DNA of 64,000 nucleotides from Candidatus Saccharimonadales bacterium (GCA_038245195.1 JBBRSU010000001.1:192121-256120); one strand, 5' to 3'. Counted from the stretch's first letter, positions 3,410 through 39,208 are shown. Made by a program: numbers and translations. Notes: generated by a model from the letters alone, not told the origin.

Positions 3410-3781
3410 TCAGGCGTGCAGGCTGAACAGCGCTCTGCCGCTTGGCGTGTAGACCTGGTGTAGGCCATCGAAGTTCAGCTGCAGGTTACTACTGACGCCA
3501 GGCCCGTAGGCCAGCGACAGGTGACACGACAGCAGTATGCCGTTGGGGTTCGAGACGAAAGTCTCAAAGCCCAGGTAGTACCCGACGAAGTAGAAGTTCG
3601 TACCGTCGGTGGAGTACAGCGTATTGCTACAGGTCTCACCAGGGTTGTTGCCGTGGTTGAAGACCACGGTGTAGATCCCTGACTGGAACGAGCCGGGCTG
3701 GGCCGGACTCGCCAATGCGGTGTTGGCGAAGACTCCGAGTGCGGAAACGACTGCCAACAGAACGATGAACTTGCGTAGCAT
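3410..3781 (-). CDS. small secreted protein (123 aa), unknown function, GC-rich gene
   Basis: SD GGAAGGAGAG lies upstream of the internal ATG (MLRKF...). Signal peptide MLRKFIVLLAVVSALGVFANTALA|SP. The track ORF 3410-3853 is probably over-extended at its 5' end. Confidence 0.6.
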   Translation of the reverse strand: MLRKFIVLLAVVSALGVFANTALASPAQPGSFQSGIYTVVFNHGNNPGETCSNTLYSTDGTNFYFVGYYLGFETFVSNPNGILLSCHLSLAYGPGVSSNLQLNFDGLHQVYTPSGRALFSLHA

Positions 3782-3975
3782 TTGCTTCTCTCCTTCCGAG
3801 AGTGACAGCGATGACAGGTGCGAGCCTGTAGGCCCATGACTTATTGTGTTCAACCTCTCGGCCTCCCACCTCAGTCTTGAGCATATATTACCATAAGTTT
3901 AATAAAAAAGCAATACCTTTTTAAATAAACTTTAGCAATTAACTTCTTAGTCAGGCTGTGGGATTATTGGTCTGC

Positions 3976-5415
3976 ATGAGGAAGTTTCGGCGAACCACTC
4001 TTATTACAGTATTCTGCATATCCGTATTGGCTGGCCTCGCTCTAGCCAGAAAAACCGCTTTAGTACCGAACTTCTGGTTGTGGATACTCATACCAGCATT
4101 TATCCGTATAAAAAGCCGACGGGCTGCCCATCTGTTATTAATTATCGGGCTTGGATGTGGATTGGGTTTGTGGAGGGGCGGGGTATATATGCAAAACTTG
4201 GCAGAGTTACGACAGCTTTCGGCCCAAAAGGTGGTAGTCCGGGCAACCGTAACCACCGATTCGGTTTATTCGGCCCGTTCCCAAATTGAATTTACCGCCA
4301 AAAATATTCAGCTCGTGCAGCCAAATAGCAAACCGCTAGCCGGGAGCTTTAAAATAAGTGGGTTTGGAGTGCCGATTGTCTACCGGGGCGACCAAGTTTT
4401 GGTATCCGGCAAATTATTTCCTATGCGCGGTAGTAACCAGGGTCGGATAGCCTATGCAAAGCTTCAAAAAGTTGGAGCGGGTAGTAGTGCTATAAACGAT
4501 TTTACTCGCAAGTTTGATGCCGGTATGCAAAGTGCTTTGCCGGAACCGATGGCTTCGTTTGGTCTGGGACTGTTAATCGGCCAACGAAACACTCTGCCGG
4601 CCAACATCACAGCCGCTTTAACGGCTGTAGGACTAGTCCATATTGTGGCAGTTTCGGGTTACAACTTAACGATAATTGTGCGCGGTGTCGGCCGGCTAAA
4701 GCTGGGTTCAAAGTATCAAAAACTACTGGCTTCACTGTTATTAATAGCTGGTTTTGTATTAGTGACCGGCTTTAGTGCATCTATCGTTCGGGCAGCTTTG
4801 GTATCGGGTCTGAGCCTGTGGGCTTGGTACTATGGCCGTCGCCTAAAGCCCCTAGTTCTAATCAGTTTTGCGGCCGCCATAACTGGTTTTTGGAACCCGT
4901 TTTATGTATGGGGCGATTTAAGCTGGTACTTATCTTTCTTAGCATTTTTTGGGGTATTAGTAATAGCACCGCTAATCGCTGCTCGATTCTTTAAACAGCA
5001 GCCCAAACTGCTCACCATGGTCTTGCTAGAAACGTTGTCGGCCGAGCTAATGACCTTACCACTAATTCTTATGACATTCGGTCAGCTTTCAATTATCGCG
5101 CTAATAGCTAACGTTTTAGTTGTGCCATTAGTGCCTCTAGCCATGTTGTTATCGGCAACTGCCGGACTTTGCGGGGCCTTAATCCCACAATTCGCTGGCT
5201 GGTTTGCCTTGCCGGCCCGGATTCTGCTGACCTACATGCTTGATATTGTCCACCTGCTGGCCAGTATTCCTTCGGTTCTAGTTCATCGGAGTGTTAGTGC
5301 TAGCTACATGCTGGCTTTATACGGCTTAGTTTTGATGATGGTTTTAGTAATTCATAAGAAGATGCCCAAACGCCAGAAACCAATTGTCGAGGAAGCCGCT
5401 GTTGCTTTCCAATAA
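3976..5415 (+). CDS. comEC: ComEC/Rec2 competence channel protein (no C-terminal metallo-beta-lactamase domain)
   Basis: Polytopic membrane protein with the VGLVHIVAVSGYNLTIIV competence-domain motif. Start is ambiguous: GTG at 3958 or ATG at 3976. Confidence 0.85.
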   Translation: MRKFRRTTLITVFCISVLAGLALARKTALVPNFWLWILIPAFIRIKSRRAAHLLLIIGLGCGLGLWRGGVYMQNLAELRQLSAQKVVVRATVTTDSVYSARSQIEFTAKNIQLVQPNSKPLAGSFKISGFGVPIVYRGDQVLVSGKLFPMRGSNQGRIAYAKLQKVGAGSSAINDFTRKFDAGMQSALPEPMASFGLGLLIGQRNTLPANITAALTAVGLVHIVAVSGYNLTIIVRGVGRLKLGSKYQKLLASLLLIAGFVLVTGFSASIVRAALVSGLSLWAWYYGRRLKPLVLISFAAAITGFWNPFYVWGDLSWYLSFLAFFGVLVIAPLIAARFFKQQPKLLTMVLLETLSAELMTLPLILMTFGQLSIIALIANVLVVPLVPLAMLLSATAGLCGALIPQFAGWFALPARILLTYMLDIVHLLASIPSVLVHRSVSASYMLALYGLVLMMVLVIHKKMPKRQKPIVEEAAVAFQ

Positions 5416-8803: not shown

Positions 8804-9754
8804 ATGAGTTTTTTGGAACAACTACCTAAGCCATTCTTTGTTTTGGCACCGATGGACGATGTTACAGACACGGTTTTCCGTCAAATTGTAGCGGGTTGTG
8901 CCAAGCCCGATTTAATGTTCACCGAATTCGTGAATGTTGATGGTCTGCAAAGCCCGGGCAGGGAACATCTAATGCATAAGCTCAAGCTATCGACCGCCGA
9001 AGGCCCGGTGGTGGCTCAGCTATGGGGCTTAAAACCTGAGAATTATTACAAAACTACTAAAGAGATTATCGAAATGGGCTTTGCCGGAGTGGATATTAAC
9101 ATGGGCTGCCCGGTAAAAACTGTTATTAAAAATGGTGCTTGTGCGGCACTTATAAATAACCGCCTGCTGGCTGGGGAAATCATTGATGCCGTCAAAGCAG
9201 CAGCAGGGGACACCCTGCCCGTCTCTGTTAAAACTCGTGTGGGTTTTACAACGATTGATATGAGCTGGATTGTTTTTTTGCTCAATAAAAAAATACTTAA
9301 CATGTTAAGTATTCATGGCCGGACGGCCAAGCAATTATCTAGCGTTCCAGCTAACTGGGACTTGATAGGCCAAGCCGCACAACTGCACACTTCCCTTTCA
9401 CCTTCAACTTTAATAGTTGGTAATGGTGATGTGATGAACCTCCAAGAGGCCGAGGATTTGGCAAAAAAACATAATTTAGATGGAGTGATGATTGGCCGCG
9501 GTATTTTTCATGACCCATTTGCGTTTGCTCAGGAAAGTCCGTGGCAGGGCTGGACCAAAGACCAAAAACTGCAACTTTTTGTTAAACATATAGAACTCTA
9601 TCTAAAAACTTATCAAGACGGTCAGCGCCGGTTCGAAACTTTGCGAAAATTCTGCAAAGTCTACATCAATGGCTTTGACGGAGCATCAGAACTTCGGACC
9701 AAATTTATGAATAGCAATACTCCAAACGAAGCCCTGGAGTTGCTAAAACAATAG
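8804..9754 (+). CDS. dus: tRNA-dihydrouridine synthase
   Basis: FVLAPMDDVTDTVFR, GVDINMGCP (catalytic Cys) and SIHGRT. Confidence 0.9.
   Translation: MSFLEQLPKPFFVLAPMDDVTDTVFRQIVAGCAKPDLMFTEFVNVDGLQSPGREHLMHKLKLSTAEGPVVAQLWGLKPENYYKTTKEIIEMGFAGVDINMGCPVKTVIKNGACAALINNRLLAGEIIDAVKAAAGDTLPVSVKTRVGFTTIDMSWIVFLLNKKILNMLSIHGRTAKQLSSVPANWDLIGQAAQLHTSLSPSTLIVGNGDVMNLQEAEDLAKKHNLDGVMIGRGIFHDPFAFAQESPWQGWTKDQKLQLFVKHIELYLKTYQDGQRRFETLRKFCKVYINGFDGASELRTKFMNSNTPNEALELLKQ
9292..9313. repeat. palindrome family copy D (AATACTTAAC-AT-GTTAAGTATT) inside dus
   Basis: Perfect 22-bp palindrome preceded by an A-run. Encodes KILNMLSI. Confidence 0.8.
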
Positions 9755-9764
9755 CCTTTATCTC

Positions 9765-9773
9765 TGTTATACT
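9765..9773 (+). promoter_or_regulatory. extended -10 promoter (TGTTATACT) for the following tRNA
   Basis: TGn-TATACT lies 9 nt upstream of the tRNA 5' end. Confidence 0.45.
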
Positions 9774-9782
9774 GGTGTTTAC

Positions 9783-9858
9783 GGGGGCGTAGCTCAGTGG
9801 TTAGAGCAGTCGGCTCATAACCGATTGGTCCCTGGTTCAAATCCAGGCGCCCCCACCA
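9783..9858 (+). tRNA. tRNA with CAT anticodon, probably tRNA-Ile2 (lysidine type); Met not excluded
   Basis: Acceptor GGGGGCG/CGCCCCC and anticodon loop CTCATAA. The body (AGTGGTTAGAGCAG..CTCATAA..TTGGTC.CTGGTTCAA.TCCAG) closely resembles my recollection of E. coli tRNA-Ile2. tilS is present in this window. Confidence 0.85.
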
Positions 9859-10541: not shown

Positions 10542-11168
10542 ATGCGTTTAGCGACGATAACAGCCGGATTGGCTGGAGCCGCGGTATTAGCAGTGCTTGG
10601 CAGTCCATCTGCACATGCACAAACACAACCACAAAACCAACAAAGCCAACCAAAAACAATTCAATCGGTGGTGGTAGCCGAAGGTGATACGCTGACGGCA
10701 ATTGCCGACGGCCATCAAACAACCTACGTTAGGATATTCGATGCTAACACTGGCATTACAGATCCTAATTTAATTTATCCAGGCGATAGTTTGCGGATTC
10801 CTGATGCCAGCGAACAGCTGGCAACGCGGGATATTCCAGCGGCTTTTGTGGCTGCAAATCCATTACCTGTGGCTCAAGCCCAAACACCACCCGCTCCTGC
10901 AGAAGCACCTCTGGCCCAGTCTGGTCCAGTTTCGGGATGCGGTGATAACCAATATGCCAACTTTATCTACTCCCATGAATCGGGTTGTAGAACTACGGCA
11001 ATGAGCCCTAACGGCTGCTTTGGCATCGGGCAAGCCTGTCCAGCCAGTAAGCTAGCCTATTGTGGGGCAGATTACGCCTGTCAGAACGACTTCTTCACGG
11101 CTTATGCCGGTAAATACGGTGGTTGGGCCGGGGCTTACGCCTTTTGGGTCAGCCACGGTTGGTGGTAA
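10542..11168 (+). CDS. secreted LysM-domain protein with Cys-rich Apf-like C-terminal domain (putative cell-wall-active protein)
   Basis: SD AAGGAGG. Signal peptide ...SPSAHA|Q. LysM domain VVAEGDTLTAIA...IYPGDSLRIP. C-terminus IYSHESGC...GIGQ...YGGWAGAYAFWVSHGWW. Confidence 0.8.
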   Translation: MRLATITAGLAGAAVLAVLGSPSAHAQTQPQNQQSQPKTIQSVVVAEGDTLTAIADGHQTTYVRIFDANTGITDPNLIYPGDSLRIPDASEQLATRDIPAAFVAANPLPVAQAQTPPAPAEAPLAQSGPVSGCGDNQYANFIYSHESGCRTTAMSPNGCFGIGQACPASKLAYCGADYACQNDFFTAYAGKYGGWAGAYAFWVSHGWW

Positions 11169-11223
11169 GCCTAGCCTAGCTTTTTGCAAAGCTAGCCAAT
11201 AAAAGTTTAGTTCACATCTATAC

Positions 11224-11260
11224 AAAAACTCCCCGTCTCGCTTGAGTCAGGGAGTTTAGT
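11224..11260 (+). terminator. hairpin terminator between the LysM gene and the tRNA
   Basis: AACTCCC...GGGAGTT stem with inner CTC-GCTT-GAG, flanked by an A-run and a T-rich tail. Confidence 0.5.
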
Positions 11261-11270
11261 ATTTAAAACT

Positions 11271-11345
11271 TGGTAGCGGGGAGAGGACTCGAACCTCTGA
11301 CCTCATGGTTATGAGCCATGCGAGCTGCCGCTGCTCCACCCCGCG
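11271..11345 (-). tRNA. initiator tRNA-fMet (CAT), CCA encoded
   Basis: Reverse complement is CGCGGGG...CTCATAA...CCCCGCT-A-CCA. Position 1:72 is unpaired (C1/U72), and there is an A11:U24 pair and a GG/CC pair at the base of the anticodon stem. Confidence 0.85.
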
Positions 11346-11460
11346 TTAACTTTGAAGGACAACCTACGGTTTTCCTTTAACGACACTTTCGGAATAAATC
11401 CGAATTCTGCTTAAGCAGAACCTTGTCTACTACCTTTCCCTTAATTAAAAAGGAAGACCA
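11346..11460 (-). ncRNA. unclassified structured RNA (copy A), co-transcribed upstream of tRNA-fMet
   Basis: Paralogue of 38935-39049. Sequence blocks are identical and four helices covary. It has its own promoter at 11468-11496. Confidence 0.55.
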
Positions 11461-11467
11461 ATGAGTA

Positions 11468-11496
11468 ATTCTAATCTGTTAAACCTTAAAAGTCAA
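11468..11496 (-). promoter_or_regulatory. sigma70-type promoter: TTGACT, 17-nt spacer, TAGAAT
   Basis: Minus-strand reading is TTGACTtttaaggtttaacagatTAGAAT. The predicted start is about 7 nt downstream, at the 5' edge of structured RNA A. Confidence 0.6.
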
Positions 11497-11716
11497 TCTG
11501 TTGCTGGAGTAACTATATATATTTGGTTTGGGCTTGCCCGGGCTGGTTATGTCTGGCTCAATGCTAGGCAGAACAATGATTAACAGAAGCGGCCCAATTT
11601 CCGGCTTACTTTTACGCAACCGTTTCATTAGTCCAATGTTCGTTTAATTTTTCACAAACACATGTTTAAAACTGTGCTTTAATAACAATTACAAAAGATT
11701 ACGAAGGAGGTTTTAT

Positions 11717-12410: not shown

Positions 12411-12683
12411 TTACCAGCGATTTTCGCGCGGGCGGTCCTCTTTAGGACGTGCCTCGGCGACCGAAATACTGCGTCCACCGACTTCTGAGCCGTTGAGCGC
12501 CTTTTCGGCGGTTTTGCCTTCTTCGTCATTTTCGAATTCAACAAAACCGAAACCTTTGCTGCGGCCGCTTTCGCGGTCACGTACGACGTTAGCGGAAGCT
12601 ACTGCGCCATGAGCGGCAAATAGTTCACGTAGTTCGTCGTCGGTGGTCGAAAAAGGTAGACCACCTACAAATACTTTGTACAT
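12411..12683 (-). CDS. RRM-type RNA-binding protein
   Basis: RNP-2 VFVGGL and RNP-1 KGFGFVEF. 90 aa. Confidence 0.88.
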   Translation of the reverse strand: MYKVFVGGLPFSTTDDELRELFAAHGAVASANVVRDRESGRSKGFGFVEFENDEEGKTAEKALNGSEVGGRSISVAEARPKEDRPRENRW

Positions 12684-13062: not shown

Positions 13063-13081
13063 TGCTATAATCCCATCTGTT
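13063..13081 (+). promoter_or_regulatory. conserved tRNA promoter motif TGCTATAAT-N5-CTGTT (copy 1)
   Basis: Extended -10 TGCTATAAT. The same 19-nt pattern lies upstream of tRNA-His and tRNA-Gly. Here the -10 is bracketed by the inverted repeat AACAGATG (13049-13056) / CATCTGTT (13074-13081). Confidence 0.6.
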
Positions 13082-13087
13082 AAATAC

Positions 13088-13164
13088 GCCAGGGTAGCTC
13101 AGTTGGTTAGAGCACAGGACTCATAAGCCTGCGGTCGCCGGTTCGAATCCGGCCCCTGGTACCA
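13088..13164 (+). tRNA. elongator tRNA-Met (CAT), CCA encoded
   Basis: GCCAGGG...CAGGA-CTCATAA-GCCTG...CCCTGGT-A-CCA. G1-U72 and A31/G39 are non-Watson-Crick. Confidence 0.85.
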
Positions 13165-13713: not shown

Positions 13714-14622
13714 ATGAAAATCCAAATTCAAAAAGGTAAGTACATTTTGGCGGTTAGCGGTGGAGTGGATTCTATGGCTTTATTACATATGCTGGCTAAC
13801 AAACCGGGTTTTGAACTAGTGGTCGGGCATTTTAACCACAATATTAGAGAGGATTCCGGGCTTGATGAGCAACTGGTTAGAAAAACCGCAAAAAAATACA
13901 ACTTAATTTATGAAACGGCATCAGCAAACAATGGAGAATTAAAAAGCGAAGAATCGGCCAGAAACGCCCGATATGCCTTTCTTGCGAGGATAAAAAACGA
14001 ATATAAAGCCAAGGCTATTATTACGGCTCATCATCAGGATGACAAAATCGAAACAGCCTTACTAAATGTGATACGCGGCACCGGAAGAAAGGGCCTTTCA
14101 GCTATTTCCGATAATAAGGGAATAATAAGGCCATTACTGGGGGTGTCCAAGAACGAGTTACTAAATTATGCCAAGCAAAATAATATAATCTGGTACGAAG
14201 ATCCAACCAATCTAAGTTTAGACTATACGCGCAATCGTTTAAGGCTATCGGCGATGCCGAACTTAACTGATAGGAATCGCGAAAAAATAATTCGCAAACT
14301 AGATAAAGTCGCAAAATTAAATAAAGATATTGATGATAAAATCGCGACAATATCGCAGACTATATCCAAAGATGGCAAAATTAATAGAGTAGTATTTAAC
14401 AACTTGCCTGATGCAGTCGGCAAAGAACTAATCGCCTATTGGCTTCGATGTCAAAATATTCAAGACTTCGACAAGCCGACAATCGACAGACTCAGCAGTG
14501 TTATTAAGACTGCTAAAAATAATACAAGACATCCTATAAAACGTAATTATTCAATACTAGTAGGACTTGATTACGTACAGTTTAGCAACACCTTTAAAAA
14601 ACCCTATTCACTACTGGTATAA
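13714..14622 (+). CDS. tilS: tRNA(Ile)-lysidine synthase
   Basis: PP-loop AVSGGVDSMALLHML. Sits upstream of ftsH, a conserved synteny. Confidence 0.9.
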   Translation: MKIQIQKGKYILAVSGGVDSMALLHMLANKPGFELVVGHFNHNIREDSGLDEQLVRKTAKKYNLIYETASANNGELKSEESARNARYAFLARIKNEYKAKAIITAHHQDDKIETALLNVIRGTGRKGLSAISDNKGIIRPLLGVSKNELLNYAKQNNIIWYEDPTNLSLDYTRNRLRLSAMPNLTDRNREKIIRKLDKVAKLNKDIDDKIATISQTISKDGKINRVVFNNLPDAVGKELIAYWLRCQNIQDFDKPTIDRLSSVIKTAKNNTRHPIKRNYSILVGLDYVQFSNTFKKPYSLLV

Positions 14623-34324: not shown

Positions 34325-34371
34325 GACTATGAACAGATTAAATTATAGCAAAAAACAGGGGTAGGTTATAG

Positions 34372-35231: not shown

Positions 35232-35240
35232 TGTTATAAT
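35232..35240 (+). promoter_or_regulatory. extended -10 promoter TGTTATAAT for tRNA-Pro(CGG)
   Basis: Located 15 nt upstream of the tRNA 5' end. Confidence 0.5.
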
Positions 35241-35255
35241 TACCCCCGTTAATAT

Positions 35256-35332
35256 CGGGGATTAGCGCAGCTTGGTAGCGCGCCGCGTTCGGGACGCGGA
35301 GGTCGTGGGTTCAAATCCCGCATCCCCGACCA
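35256..35332 (+). tRNA. tRNA-Pro (CGG), CCA encoded
   Basis: CGGGGAT...CCGCG-TTCGGGA-CGCGG...ATCCCCG-A-CCA. Confidence 0.92.
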
Positions 35333-36480: not shown

Positions 36481-36558
36481 TGGGGTGCCTGAAGGGACTT
36501 GAACCCTCGACTTTCAGTACCACAAACTGACGCTCTAACCAACTGAGCTACAGGCACC
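36481..36558 (-). tRNA. tRNA-His (GTG) with encoded G-1 and CCA
   Basis: G-1 + GTGCCTG...TCAGT-TTGTGGT-ACTGA...CAGGCAC-C-CCA. Confidence 0.92.
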
Positions 36559-36560
36559 AC

Positions 36561-36579
36561 AACAGGGGTGATTATAGCA
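36561..36579 (-). promoter_or_regulatory. conserved tRNA promoter motif TGCTATAAT-N5-CTGTT (copy 2, tRNA-His)
   Basis: Minus-strand reading TGCTATAATCACCCCTGTT, ending 2 nt before G-1. Confidence 0.55.
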
Positions 36580-36604
36580 TTTATATACTCAATAAACCAG
36601 AAGT

Positions 36605-37306: not shown

Positions 37307-37969
37307 ATGAGTAATATGACTCTTAATAGACACGCCAGTGAAAGTATTGATGCTCATTTCGATGAGGGTACTTCGAAGCGCTATCTGAAGAATGAGATTA
37401 TCGTACAAGGTGATGAAGAGCCTTCGGGAGTGTTTTTCATTTTAGAGGGCTACGTAAAGGCCTACTCCATATCGCAACTGGGACAACAAAACCTTTTATT
37501 AATTCAAGGGTCTCATGAAATTCTGCCTTTGCCTTGGGCCCTAGACGGACCTCAAAAAATTGGTATTTATTACGAGGCGATGTCCGATGTAACTCTTAAA
37601 CGAACTTCCAAAGCCGCGTTGAGGGCATCCATGGGCAGCGATCCCTGGCTTACCGAACAAATACTCCGCCAATTAGTCGATGCCTTTACAGTTTACGCAC
37701 AAAGGATTCAAAGCCTTGGGTTTCGATTACCCCGTGAACGAATAATTGCTTGTTTACTTGATTTAAGCACACGCTTTGGTGAAAGGCATGATGATAACAA
37801 TATAATCAAAGCACCTATAACTCATCAAGATATAGCTGATTCTACAAACATGACAAGAGAAACAGCCAGTAGGGCTATAGAGCAGCTATTCAAAGATAAG
37901 TTAATTCATCAAGAAAACCATTTTTTTGTAATTAACAATGAATCAAAACTAAAGTCAGAACTTAGCTAA
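37307..37969 (+). CDS. Crp/Fnr family transcriptional regulator (paralogue 1)
   Basis: cNMP-binding-like beta-roll (GVFFILEGYVKAY) and C-terminal HTH (THQDIADSTNMTRETASRAIEQL). Confidence 0.85.
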   Translation: MSNMTLNRHASESIDAHFDEGTSKRYLKNEIIVQGDEEPSGVFFILEGYVKAYSISQLGQQNLLLIQGSHEILPLPWALDGPQKIGIYYEAMSDVTLKRTSKAALRASMGSDPWLTEQILRQLVDAFTVYAQRIQSLGFRLPRERIIACLLDLSTRFGERHDDNNIIKAPITHQDIADSTNMTRETASRAIEQLFKDKLIHQENHFFVINNESKLKSELS

Positions 37970-38103: not shown

Positions 38104-38781
38104 TTAACTAAGAGCGTTTTGCAACTTTGGTAAGTCTAAGATTGTGAACAGGTGATCTTCTTGGCCCAATAGGCCTTCGTCAAAAAGTAATTCTAATGCC
38201 CGGCTGGCGGTCTCACGGGTCATATTAATTGAATCAGATATATCCTGATGGGTTACCGGAGCATCTATAAGGACTTCTTCTCCTCGATGTTTACCAAACA
38301 TTTCCGCTAGATTTAATATCTCCGCAACTATTCTTCCACGGGCCGAGCGATACTCCAGAGTCTGGATTCTTTGAGCATAAACGCTAATTATATTTACTGA
38401 TTGTTTTAATAGCTCTTGCGATAGCCAGATGTTATCTCCCATGGCTATACGTAGCTTCTCTTTGGACGTACGAAGTACTGTAACATCTGACATTGCCTCG
38501 TAATATAGGCCCTCTGTATGCACTCCGTCTAAAGCCCAAGTAAGAGGGATGAACTCTCCCGCATCATGAATAAGTAACAAGCTCTCCTGGCCGGCTTTAG
38601 TTATTGTGTAGGCTTTAACAAAGCCATTTTTAATAAGATATACACCCTGTGGTTCGTCCAAGCCATTTATTATGATCTCATCTTTTGAGTATTTCAGAAT
38701 CACGCCATCACTGAAGTAAGTATCAATGTCTTCTTCTCTGACTTTTTCGGTCGGCGTAATTGCCAGTGTGTGCTTTGGCAT
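38104..38781 (-). CDS. Crp/Fnr family transcriptional regulator (paralogue 2)
   Basis: Same architecture (GVYLIKNGFVKAY; THQDISDSINMTRETASRALELL). Clearly similar to 37307-37969. Confidence 0.85.
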   Translation of the reverse strand: MPKHTLAITPTEKVREEDIDTYFSDGVILKYSKDEIIINGLDEPQGVYLIKNGFVKAYTITKAGQESLLLIHDAGEFIPLTWALDGVHTEGLYYEAMSDVTVLRTSKEKLRIAMGDNIWLSQELLKQSVNIISVYAQRIQTLEYRSARGRIVAEILNLAEMFGKHRGEEVLIDAPVTHQDISDSINMTRETASRALELLFDEGLLGQEDHLFTILDLPKLQNALS

Positions 38782-38857: not shown

Positions 38858-38934
38858 TGGTACCCCCGGCAAGATTCGAACTTGCGACCTTGAGCTTAGA
38901 AGTCTCCTGCTCTATCCAACTGAGCTACGGGGGC
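38858..38934 (-). tRNA. tRNA-Arg (TCT), CCA encoded
   Basis: GCCCCCG...GGAGA-CTTCTAA-GCTCA...CGGGGGT-A-CCA. The anticodon stem has two mismatched end pairs, and 1:72 is G-U. Confidence 0.8.
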
Positions 38935-39049
38935 AAAATTGAAGGACAACCTACGGTTTTCCTTCAACACCCGGTCGGCACAAGCCGAGTTTGCAAGCAA
39001 ACCAAGCCGGGCTACTATCTTTCCCTGGAATAGGAAAAGACAAGAACAA
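38935..39049 (-). ncRNA. unclassified structured RNA (copy B), exactly filling the spacer between tRNA-Gly and tRNA-Arg
   Basis: Paralogue of 11346-11460. The terminal hairpin TTGAAGGA-A-AACC-GTA-GGTT-G-TCCTTCAA is identical, and the three-way-junction helices covary. Confidence 0.55.
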
Positions 39050-39124
39050 TGGTGCGGGATGGGGTAGTCGAAACCCCGTCTTAAGTTTGGAAAACTTACA
39101 TATTAACCGTTATACGAATCCCGC
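39050..39124 (-). tRNA. tRNA-Gly (TCC), CCA encoded
   Basis: GCGGGAT...TAAGT-TTTCCAA-ACTTA-AGAC-GGGGT-TTCGACT-ACCCC-ATCCCGC-A-CCA. Confidence 0.88.
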
Positions 39125-39127
39125 TCG

Positions 39128-39146
39128 AACAGATGAAATTATAGCA
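39128..39146 (-). promoter_or_regulatory. conserved tRNA promoter motif TGCTATAAT-N5-CTGTT (copy 3, tRNA-Gly operon)
   Basis: Minus-strand reading TGCTATAATTTCATCTGTT, ending 3 nt before the tRNA-Gly 5' end. Confidence 0.55.
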
Positions 39147-39208
39147 GGTTTACTGGTTATTATTACATCAACTAATTGCCCTAATGCTAAATTTAGTATA
39201 ATGGTAAT

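Follow-up and report, generated by a model that had tools for sequence, protein, structure and literature searches.

RNAs derived from transfer RNA (tRNA) precursors, such as 3′ETS-leuZ of Escherichia coli, are specific to their loci and work through base pairing or 3′-end protection. Small ribozyme classes, among them the hammerhead, twister, hatchet and pistol ribozymes, are widely dispersed in unrelated contexts. Short modular repeats form a third group, which includes BOX and RUP of pneumococci, the Correia elements of Neisseria, ERIC, the Rickettsia palindromic elements and REP/REPIN. Here, we report on an element, the module, that shares features with all of these. Two copies, A and B, lie beside tRNA genes in a 64,000-nt stretch of DNA from Candidatus Saccharimonadales bacterium (GCA_038245195.1, JBBRSU010000001.1:192121-256120), hereafter the window. 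Comparative sequence analysis gives good support to the view that the module is a genuine, strongly structured RNA-type element; it is apparently undescribed, can be placed in no existing family, and is probably mobile or formerly mobile.

Like the tRNA-precursor RNAs (3′ETS-leuZ, and the ends of MALAT1/mascRNA), the window copies combine a tRNA unit, a structured piece and, as predicted here, one end made by a tRNA-processing enzyme, but the module recurs at many loci, non-tRNA contexts included, and no pairing target for it was found in rnpB, 5S, 23S, the 5′ part of 16S or the window. With BOX, RUP, Correia, ERIC, the Rickettsia elements and REPIN it shares a length of about 50–150 nt, a non-coding and modular nature, intergenic and co-transcribed positions, occurrence inside RNA genes, inverted doublets and patchiness at orthologous sites. 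BOX/RUP/Correia-type families are species- or genus-restricted and have many near-identical copies, whereas the module has 2–6 strongly diverged copies per genome, shows RNA-type covariation and keeps two blocks across very different genomes; it also lacks the terminal inverted repeats and the RAYT or transposase of such families. The ends of IS200/IS605 elements and the omega RNAs of TnpB/IscB are likewise structured non-coding segments in which a terminal hairpin is followed by ...TCAA and abuts an unrelated flank. No tnpA, tnpB or iscB gene was found beside 142 module copies by clustering of flanking open reading frames (ORFs), no second matching end hairpin exists, and copy B lies entirely between two tRNAs, unlike an omega RNA. 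Some module copies have direct repeats, whereas IS200/IS605 elements are not known to make any. The dispersed ribozymes resemble the module in their fixed core with optional stems, scattered contexts and presence in several domains; the module differs in having no Rfam match or recognisable catalytic core.

Intervening sequences of 23S ribosomal RNA (rRNA) are the last comparison. In one 23S rRNA gene (locus L122) module copies are inserted at hairpin tips, a placement seen at that locus and not for the window copies; the module occurs mainly outside rRNA. A 2024 survey found 64 of 66 Saccharibacteria rRNA insertions to be short, ORF-less and unclassified, and does not describe the module motif (PMC11270868). 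Judged by L122, the module accounts for at least some short rRNA insertions of this type.

Both window copies are found on the minus strand where an earlier interpretation made from the DNA alone (the sequence-only reading) had placed them, with the shared block and 3′ hairpin present in each. Their parts are as follows.

About 11346-11462, minus strand: copy A, ending 6 nt before tRNA-Met(CAT).
11271-11345, minus strand: tRNA-Met(CAT), initiator type, the downstream partner of copy A (ARAGORN; Rfam tRNA, 60.2 bits).
11468-11496, minus strand: promoter-like site TTGACT-17-TAGAAT of the copy A and tRNA-fMet unit, the sole consensus match in 11150-11650.
11429-11462, minus strand: optional 5′ helix P1 of copy A (minimum free energy fold), the pyrimidine strand at 11449-11462 pairing with AAGGGAAAGGUAGU at 11429-11442.
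11427-11440, minus strand: conserved 5′ purine block of copy A, GGGAAAGGTAGTAG (block comparison of both copies).
11382-11427, minus strand: three-way junction P2–P4 of copy A (single-copy folding).
11352-11380, minus strand: 3′ hairpin P5 of copy A, UUAAAGGA-A-AACC-GUA-GGUU-G-UCCUUCAA, with A·G mismatch and triloop.
11346-11351, minus strand: single-stranded 6-nt spacer AGUUAA of copy A, ahead of the predicted RNase P site (sequence and tRNA call).
38935-39049, minus strand: copy B, occupying the whole 115-nt spacer from tRNA-Gly to tRNA-Arg(TCT).
39050-39124, minus strand: tRNA-Gly(TCC), directly upstream of copy B, with its own TATAAT...CTGTT promoter region further upstream.
38858-38934, minus strand: tRNA-Arg(TCT), 3–4 nt downstream of copy B (ARAGORN and Rfam).
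39015-39043, minus strand: helix P1 of copy B, UUGUCUUUUCCU / AGGGAAAGAUAG (minimum free energy fold).
39012-39025, minus strand: conserved 5′ block of copy B, GGGAAAGATAGTAG (block comparison of both copies).
38969-39012, minus strand: three-way junction of copy B (‘type 2’), with P2 GCCCGG/CCGGGU, P3 at 38989-39002 and P4 at 38975-38988.
38938-38968, minus strand: 3′ hairpin P5 of copy B, GUUGAAGGA-A-AACC-GUA-GGUU-G-UCCUUCAAU (single-copy fold).

In sequence, the two copies are alike in their fixed blocks only. The window contains the 19-mer GGAAAACCGTAGGTTGTCC twice and no more (chance expectation 0.01), in both copies preceded by GGGAAAG(G/A)TAGTAG. Folded separately, A and B each form the helices that the sequence-only reading listed, in the order P1, single-stranded UAGUA, three-way junction, one unpaired G and P5, and P5 carries an A·G mismatch and a GUA triloop in both. 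In copy A, P2 is GACA(A)/(G)UGUC (11424-11427 with 11382-11385), the P3 and P4 hairpins span 11404-11421 and 11389-11403, and the single-copy fold places the 3′ hairpin at 11355-11377; its lower part contains an A·C mismatch, with GTTAAAGG in place of GTTGAAGG. The hairpin stems of copy B, in its single-copy fold, are GUUUG/CAAAC and UCGGC/GCCGA. Folding Z-scores are −2.8 for A and −5.3 for B. The module is carried by two of the 12 tRNA genes of the window, where covariance models found no further copies.

Both copies sit in spacers of tRNA precursors, in the arrangements promoter–A–6 nt–tRNA and tRNA-Gly–B–3–4 nt–tRNA-Arg. The promoter proposed for copy A is indeed the only consensus match near it, and AACAGATTGAC...TAGAAT is similarly arranged upstream of the orthologous element and tRNA-fMet at L010 and L101. 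Because the element sits between the only promoter-like site and the tRNA, its proposed co-transcription with the tRNA and a 3′ end made by RNase P are sound predictions.

The module is far from the two-member family first envisaged: more than 140 copies were recovered outside the window by pattern scans and a covariance model. A scan with the two-block pattern over one genome per GTDB species gave 18 loci, whose record titles are mostly Saccharibacteria or Saccharimonadales, five having other titles of metagenome-assembled genomes. The most hits from any one genome were three, in JACOWW, where a model search added two more, and the five copies there all differ from each other. A metagenome scan baited with the hairpin core alone added at least 120 loci (L041–L160). 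A first covariance model (R1), with a MAFFT/RNAalifold structure, missed P2 and P3 and was replaced by R2, built on a gap-free 12-sequence alignment with the structure specified by hand. R2 made 92 matches in 85 loci, with homologues and covariation in other genomes.

Comparison of these copies defines three parts within about 45–120 nt. The purine block AGGGAAA(A)G-RAGYAG comes first; the insert that may follow is either a single hairpin or a three-way junction, and some copies have none. The closing hairpin varies in its lower stem, whereas its upper part, GGA-A-AACC-NUA-GGUU-G-UCC, with the A·G mismatch, is nearly fixed. Positions of both blocks that were not part of the bait are identical in all 18 genome-scan copies, and the junction helices vary freely. 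Among the matches listed from the hairpin-baited scan, GGGAAA(A/G) lies within 102 nt upstream of 88 of the 109 distinct cores, compared with 1.3% of control windows and 4% downstream, and the distance from block to core is 12–31 nt with no insert, 44–52 nt with one hairpin and 56–68 nt with the three-way junction. Four of 76 5′ blocks had no core nearby, and none of these four flanks an ORF. The sequence-only reading held that A and B pair alike in their middles while being completely different in sequence there; the shared pairing stands, and the middles instead represent two recurrent subtypes, type 1 (copy A-like) and type 2 (copy B-like), each present in many genomes.

Covariation carries the case for a selected RNA fold. 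Across 88 distinct long-form copies, aligned to the model, 95.7% of pair cells hold standard pairs, compared with 77% after shuffling and 32–49% with slid partners, and both sides change in 26 of 29 pairs. All 17 pairs of P2–P4 covary with changes on both sides, and none of 500 shuffles equalled the observed covariation on any measure. The compensatory change noticed between the two window copies extends to every variable helix of the family, while the upper part of P5 is nearly invariant across the same 88 copies. Independently of this alignment, the stem flanking the hairpin core extends on average by 4.6 bp, against 0.6 in controls, and among the matches listed its lower part is built from 43 different flanking sequences in 113 copies. 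The 5′ helix fared less well: it is present in A and B and optional in the family, a run of at least 6 bp occurring in 32 of 85 copies (about 14 expected), a partial enrichment that does not make P1 a universal helix. G·U pairs (47) are more frequent than A·C (25), which hints modestly that folding takes place on the annotated strand, and a copy in reverse context (L107) has its G·U pairs on the element strand. Compensatory change is also seen in place, at loci with promoter and tRNA in common. The helices of the element and tRNA-fMet unit differ by compensatory pairs between copy A, L010 and L101 with the blocks fixed, and the same is true of the Gly–element–Arg unit in copy B and its orthologue L136.

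The family is not confined to Saccharibacteria. Among the matches listed, carrier contigs range from about 35 to 68% GC, include pflB-pflA or ispE-spoVG neighbourhoods and in one case encode ribosomal protein L44e, and on account of these features we conclude that the module reaches into other bacteria and probably into archaea. A phage origin was rejected: among 2.9 million viral contigs a single occurrence of the core was found, and a looser pattern yielded chance hits only.

Membership of a known RNA family was looked for at several levels. Rfam 15, at gathering threshold, finds 12 tRNAs and nothing else in the whole window. The recommended cmscan of both copies, run at E≤10, gave nothing beyond tRNAs and chance hits no higher than 22 bits, in agreement with the initial failure to match them to any known RNA, and twenty diverse family members gave no match on the element at E≤0.5. 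Neither in the window nor at 38 loci, at gathering and permissive E-values, is the element hit by any family; 5S rRNA, SRP RNA, 6S RNA, tmRNA, the T-box, riboswitches, known ribozymes and the HEARO/IS605-orfB motifs are among the Rfam 15 families to which it does not belong. The literature on structured RNAs, tRNA leaders and rRNA insertions of Saccharibacteria and the candidate phyla radiation (CPR), searched in full text and with the exact core sequence, yielded no description of the module; the one pertinent passage concerned the short unclassified rRNA insertions. Group I introns are a special case, since the module can occur in their tails: at L009 the Rfam Intron_gpI matches stop at 1913 and the element occupies 1935-2047, between the intron core and the 3′ splice site, and the window copies have no such match in Rfam 15 at E≤10.

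Genomic context argues against a link to the initiator tRNA in particular. The contexts given here are those of copies recovered by the scans and, for the hairpin-core set, of the matches listed. About 28 tRNAs, with at least nine specificities (Pro, Arg, Met, fMet, His, Asn, Gln, Gly and Phe), lie directly downstream of P5 on the same strand. The module also precedes 5S rRNA (L002, L052), always with a gap of 3–9 nt to the 5′ end of the tRNA or 5S rRNA, and occupies the tails of group I introns before 23S exons (two introns in L009; L049, L072, L091, L119). In the 5′ untranslated regions and intercistronic spacers of housekeeping genes it lies before the start codons of Pfam-confirmed rpsL (S12), groEL, rplV (L22), rplR (L18), hrcA, nusA and ftsA, and a SpoVG gene and a PflA-like activase gene, both assigned by Pfam, lie 47 and 88 nt downstream of other copies.

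Intact copies in reverse orientation separate two tRNAs at L004, a LysM/CHAP hydrolase gene from obg at L007 and L011, and rpmG from tRNA-Trp at L076 and L107; another lies 8 nt from the 5′ end of tRNA-His (L117). In the L122 23S rRNA gene, compared with that of L002, two insertions of 150–210 nt (194-402 and 577-732) replace hairpin tips by module copies: one insertion is a reversed copy, and the other a reversed variant and a sense copy head to head. The tRNA-Arg(TCG) of L041 and the tRNA-Gln(TTG) of L090 contain the reverse complement of the short form as introns of 65 and 44 nt, which are probable archaeal tRNA introns; the L44e gene mentioned above is on the L090 contig and points to an archaeon. 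Roughly 36 sense copies lie 5′ of stable RNAs or exons, as against 11 reverse copies. This sense bias of roughly 3:1, together with the in-place compensatory change, argues that selection acts on the RNA transcript, or on a single strand with the same polarity.

Several observations suggest that the module arrives by insertion. The other tRNA genes of the window have extremely short leaders, in which TATAAT and 3–6 nt are followed by (A/C)TCTGTT or CCCTGTT and, 3–6 nt further on, by the mature 5′ end; an ‘empty’ gene can thus be written TATAAT-N-CTGTT, 3–6 nt, tRNA.

9760-9783, 13064-13088, 34325-34350, 35232-35256, 36558-36580 and 39125-39150: short tRNA leader pattern (sequence reading).

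In relatives, the orthologous Met, Pro(CGG) and His genes carry a module of about 100 nt between CTGTT and the tRNA, and their window counterparts are empty. Variable regions are 91–98% identical at loci with unrelated flanks; that of copy B, for example, is 91% identical to elements at the unrelated loci L015 and L079. Head-to-head pairs are found at L051, L070, L120 and L122. Direct repeats of 9–19 nt flank five copies, four of them from the flank test (about 0.2 expected) and the fifth at L127. At L050 (780-960) each side of the element bears a copy of the rplR ribosome-binding site and ATG.

L150 (200-330) shows a duplication of the same kind, its element being flanked on either side by the downstream gene's ribosome-binding site and ATG. 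At L050 and L150 a short ORF passes through the element and ends at the TAATG of the true start, which looks like kept translational coupling.

Our data are best accommodated, with a probability of roughly 45%, by a model in which the two copies are insertion-prone, independently folding RNA modules, not tRNA-specific regulators, and a trans-acting factor recognises their fixed blocks. In the window, both would have been inserted into tRNA-gene leaders or spacers that are otherwise ultra-short. The tRNA promoter would transcribe module and tRNA together, the module would fold independently, and RNase P would cut 3–6 nt past P5, giving an RNA of about 110 nt with a stable 3′ hairpin. The module may persist at transcribed, non-coding ‘safe’ sites of stable-RNA and housekeeping genes, and selection keeps the fold and the two fixed blocks, most likely for recognition by a conserved trans-acting factor, which could be an RNA-binding protein of the host or the machinery by which the element spreads.

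A number of points weigh against this model. Transcription of the module, its release by RNase P and its accumulation are predictions from DNA sequence. No terminal inverted repeats are visible, and no autonomous element or transposase was seen near the copies. Target-site duplication is not general: the mean longest flank repeat is 4.95 nt, matching the 4.75 nt of controls. Miniature inverted-repeat transposable elements (MITEs) offer a useful yardstick. The module resembles them in its presence or absence at orthologous sites and in highly similar copies at unrelated loci, but near-identical copies within a genome, a transposase-bearing relative, and inverted repeats with a fixed-length duplication were not found, and recently active MITEs would not show such strong divergence among the copies of one genome. 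Clustering of 1122 ORFs flanking 142 copies brought out neither a partner protein nor a gene family that recurs beside the module; ORFs within 3 kb group by local synteny only. The pair counts come from an alignment fitted to the model and from related sequences, and the near-invariance of the core in L041–L160 is partly built in, the core having been the search bait; the model did detect core variants (CCCC/GGGG, GAACC/GGUUC, AAGGG/CCCUU) that are compensatory and keep the mismatch. Finally, in-place compensatory evolution and near-invariant blocks fit a host-beneficial RNA equally well.

Such a host-beneficial RNA is the alternative that survives best, and we regard it as possible, if doubtful. 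The module would be a trans-acting small RNA or RNA–protein scaffold, present as several diverged paralogues riding on stable-RNA units, with mature ends made by RNase P, splicing or rRNA processing and with fixed blocks that bind a host protein or the ribosome. The persistence of structure and blocks at orthologous loci with compensatory change speaks for it, as do the absence of bursts of near-identical copies among the few diverged ones of each genome, the sense-biased orientation, and a 3′ hairpin that always lies 2–13 nt before a processing site (that of RNase P, the 5S 5′ end or a 3′ splice site). Copies in reverse context retain the features of their own strand, including the G·U pairs of L107, and both fixed blocks are Shine–Dalgarno-like purine tracts. 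The distribution is nevertheless unlike that of a dedicated non-coding RNA gene: presence at orthologous tRNA genes is patchy, copies lie in group I intron tails, within 23S helices, in reverse orientation and as reversed tRNA introns, and direct repeats surround some of them. Consensus scans did not reveal stand-alone genes either, giving no promoter for copies that are not beside a co-oriented RNA gene and a single terminator, at L008, which is bidirectional. Antisense targeting by the 5′ block was not supported, its complementarity to rnpB, 5S, 23S and the 5′ part of 16S being no better than shuffled; the remainder of the window holds no complementary 10-mer or longer, and no protein gene is co-localised with the module.

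A more ambitious interpretation, which we consider unlikely, is that the module represents a new functional RNA class of ultra-small bacteria, other bacteria and archaea, either a new self-cleaving or processing ribozyme or the RNA ligand of a conserved cellular machine such as the ribosome or RNA polymerase, that spreads in the manner of short interspersed nuclear elements (SINEs). If true, spread as a SINE-like, RNA-structured mobile unit would account for direct repeats of variable length and for a preference for RNA genes with high transcription.

An improbable alternative is a cis-acting leader that serves the downstream stable RNA, for example by insulating its folding, aiding access of RNase P, causing pausing or antitermination, or sensing growth signals. 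The tight placement 3–9 nt before tRNAs, 5S rRNA and exons, the position just downstream of promoters and the identity of the downstream genes, which form a classical growth-rate regulon (tRNA, rRNA, ribosomal proteins, nusA, groEL), would suit such a leader. Yet only two of the 12 tRNA genes of the window have one, orthologous tRNAs manage without it, no consistent terminator or other expression platform follows P5, and intact copies are found reversed, at 3′ positions and inside rRNA. A riboswitch-like exchange between the 5′ block and the 3′ strand of P5 was discarded, the own pairs (−5.4 kcal/mol) and the cross pairs (−5.3 kcal/mol) having similar energies.

Quite improbable, in our view, is a new small self-cleaving ribozyme class, with the fixed nucleotides as active site and a cleavage beside the module that processes the flanking RNAs. 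Fixed nucleotides in ‘helices’, optional peripheral stems, many unrelated contexts, occasional pairs and occurrence in bacteria and archaea are what such a ribozyme would display, but no Rfam ribozyme model is similar, no position for cleavage can be suggested, the fixed part is a plain hairpin that compensatory substitution can change, and reverse-oriented copies are apparently maintained. Least probable of all is a DNA-level site, a near-palindromic GGAnAACC-NNN-GGTTnTCC that a dimeric protein would use for binding or recombination, or a single-strand DNA transposase as a hairpin substrate, with an incidental RNA fold: the upper-stem halves do read the same on both strands, both orientations and inverted pairs occur and the core is fixed across contigs of 35–68% GC, but the covariation covers a three-way junction and lower stem needless for a duplex-DNA site, the fixed 5′ block is asymmetric and always on one side, copies favour one orientation relative to transcription by about 3:1, there are more G·U than A·C pairs, and no recombinase or transposase gene is associated.

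On the model of an insertion-prone RNA module, streamlined genomes tolerate and keep a folded unit of about 100 nt before essential tRNAs, which points to an RNA-binding factor or to a new mode of spread or persistence. The module would add to the catalogue a widespread, strongly supported structured RNA family, missing from Rfam and enriched in Saccharibacteria/CPR, and it identifies what at least some of the ‘short uncharacterised insertions’ in Saccharibacteria rRNA genes are. The two blocks fixed across distant genomes represent an experimental handle.

Some further observations concern the module itself. The 5′ block AGGGAAAG (11427-11440) resembles the 5′ strand of P5, AAGGAAAA (11368-11380), and does so family-wide. 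Both are purine tracts of Shine–Dalgarno type, their partner strands are anti-Shine–Dalgarno-like pyrimidine tracts, and the two purine tracts change in parallel among variant copies. On the GC-rich contigs L060, L061, L088, L103, L110, L130 and L146 the short form lies inside a longer conserved non-coding stretch, ...GGATCGCACTGCGCCAGCA-GGGAAAGAGAAGGGTTCC...core...TTTCTGGCA(A/G)AGGGGGG...GGGGGGAGATACCTT, which may be a larger RNA.

Two carrier loci are of interest for their introns. The 23S rRNA gene of L009 has two Rfam-confirmed group I introns (1391-1631 and 1674-1913) and a third group-I-like insertion at about 3700-4135; the published survey reports almost no introns in Saccharibacteria rRNA genes (PMC11270868). 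At L068 the element lies 3 nt ahead of a tRNA 5′ half (GCGGGGGTGCTCGAGCGG...) whose matching 3′ end is about 230 nt further on, a spacing that suggests a tRNA gene split by a long intron, possibly of group I.

Around copy A, three tRNA-Met(CAT) genes (9783-9858, 11271-11345 and 13088-13164) cluster with two protein genes, as follows.

8804-9754 and 13714-14622: dihydrouridine synthase and TilS-like PP-loop genes of the tRNA-Met cluster.

One of the three CAT tRNAs is probably a lysidine-modified tRNA-Ile. About 1 kb from copy A, a gene on the minus strand (12411-12683) encodes a 90-aa single-RRM RNA-binding protein, which is a candidate binder of the module; at L014 and L015 its homologue follows the element and tRNA-Met unit after about 400 nt, in probable synteny. 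The elongator tRNA-Met of the window (13088-13164), compared with L014 (2547-2716) and L015, has no module and appears inverted relative to the genes for a 170-aa membrane protein and the RRM protein. Near copy B, two adjacent paralogous regulators of the Crp/FNR type (cNMP-binding and HTH_Crp_2 domains; 37307-37969 on the plus strand and 38104-38781 on the minus strand) are encoded just downstream of tRNA-Arg.

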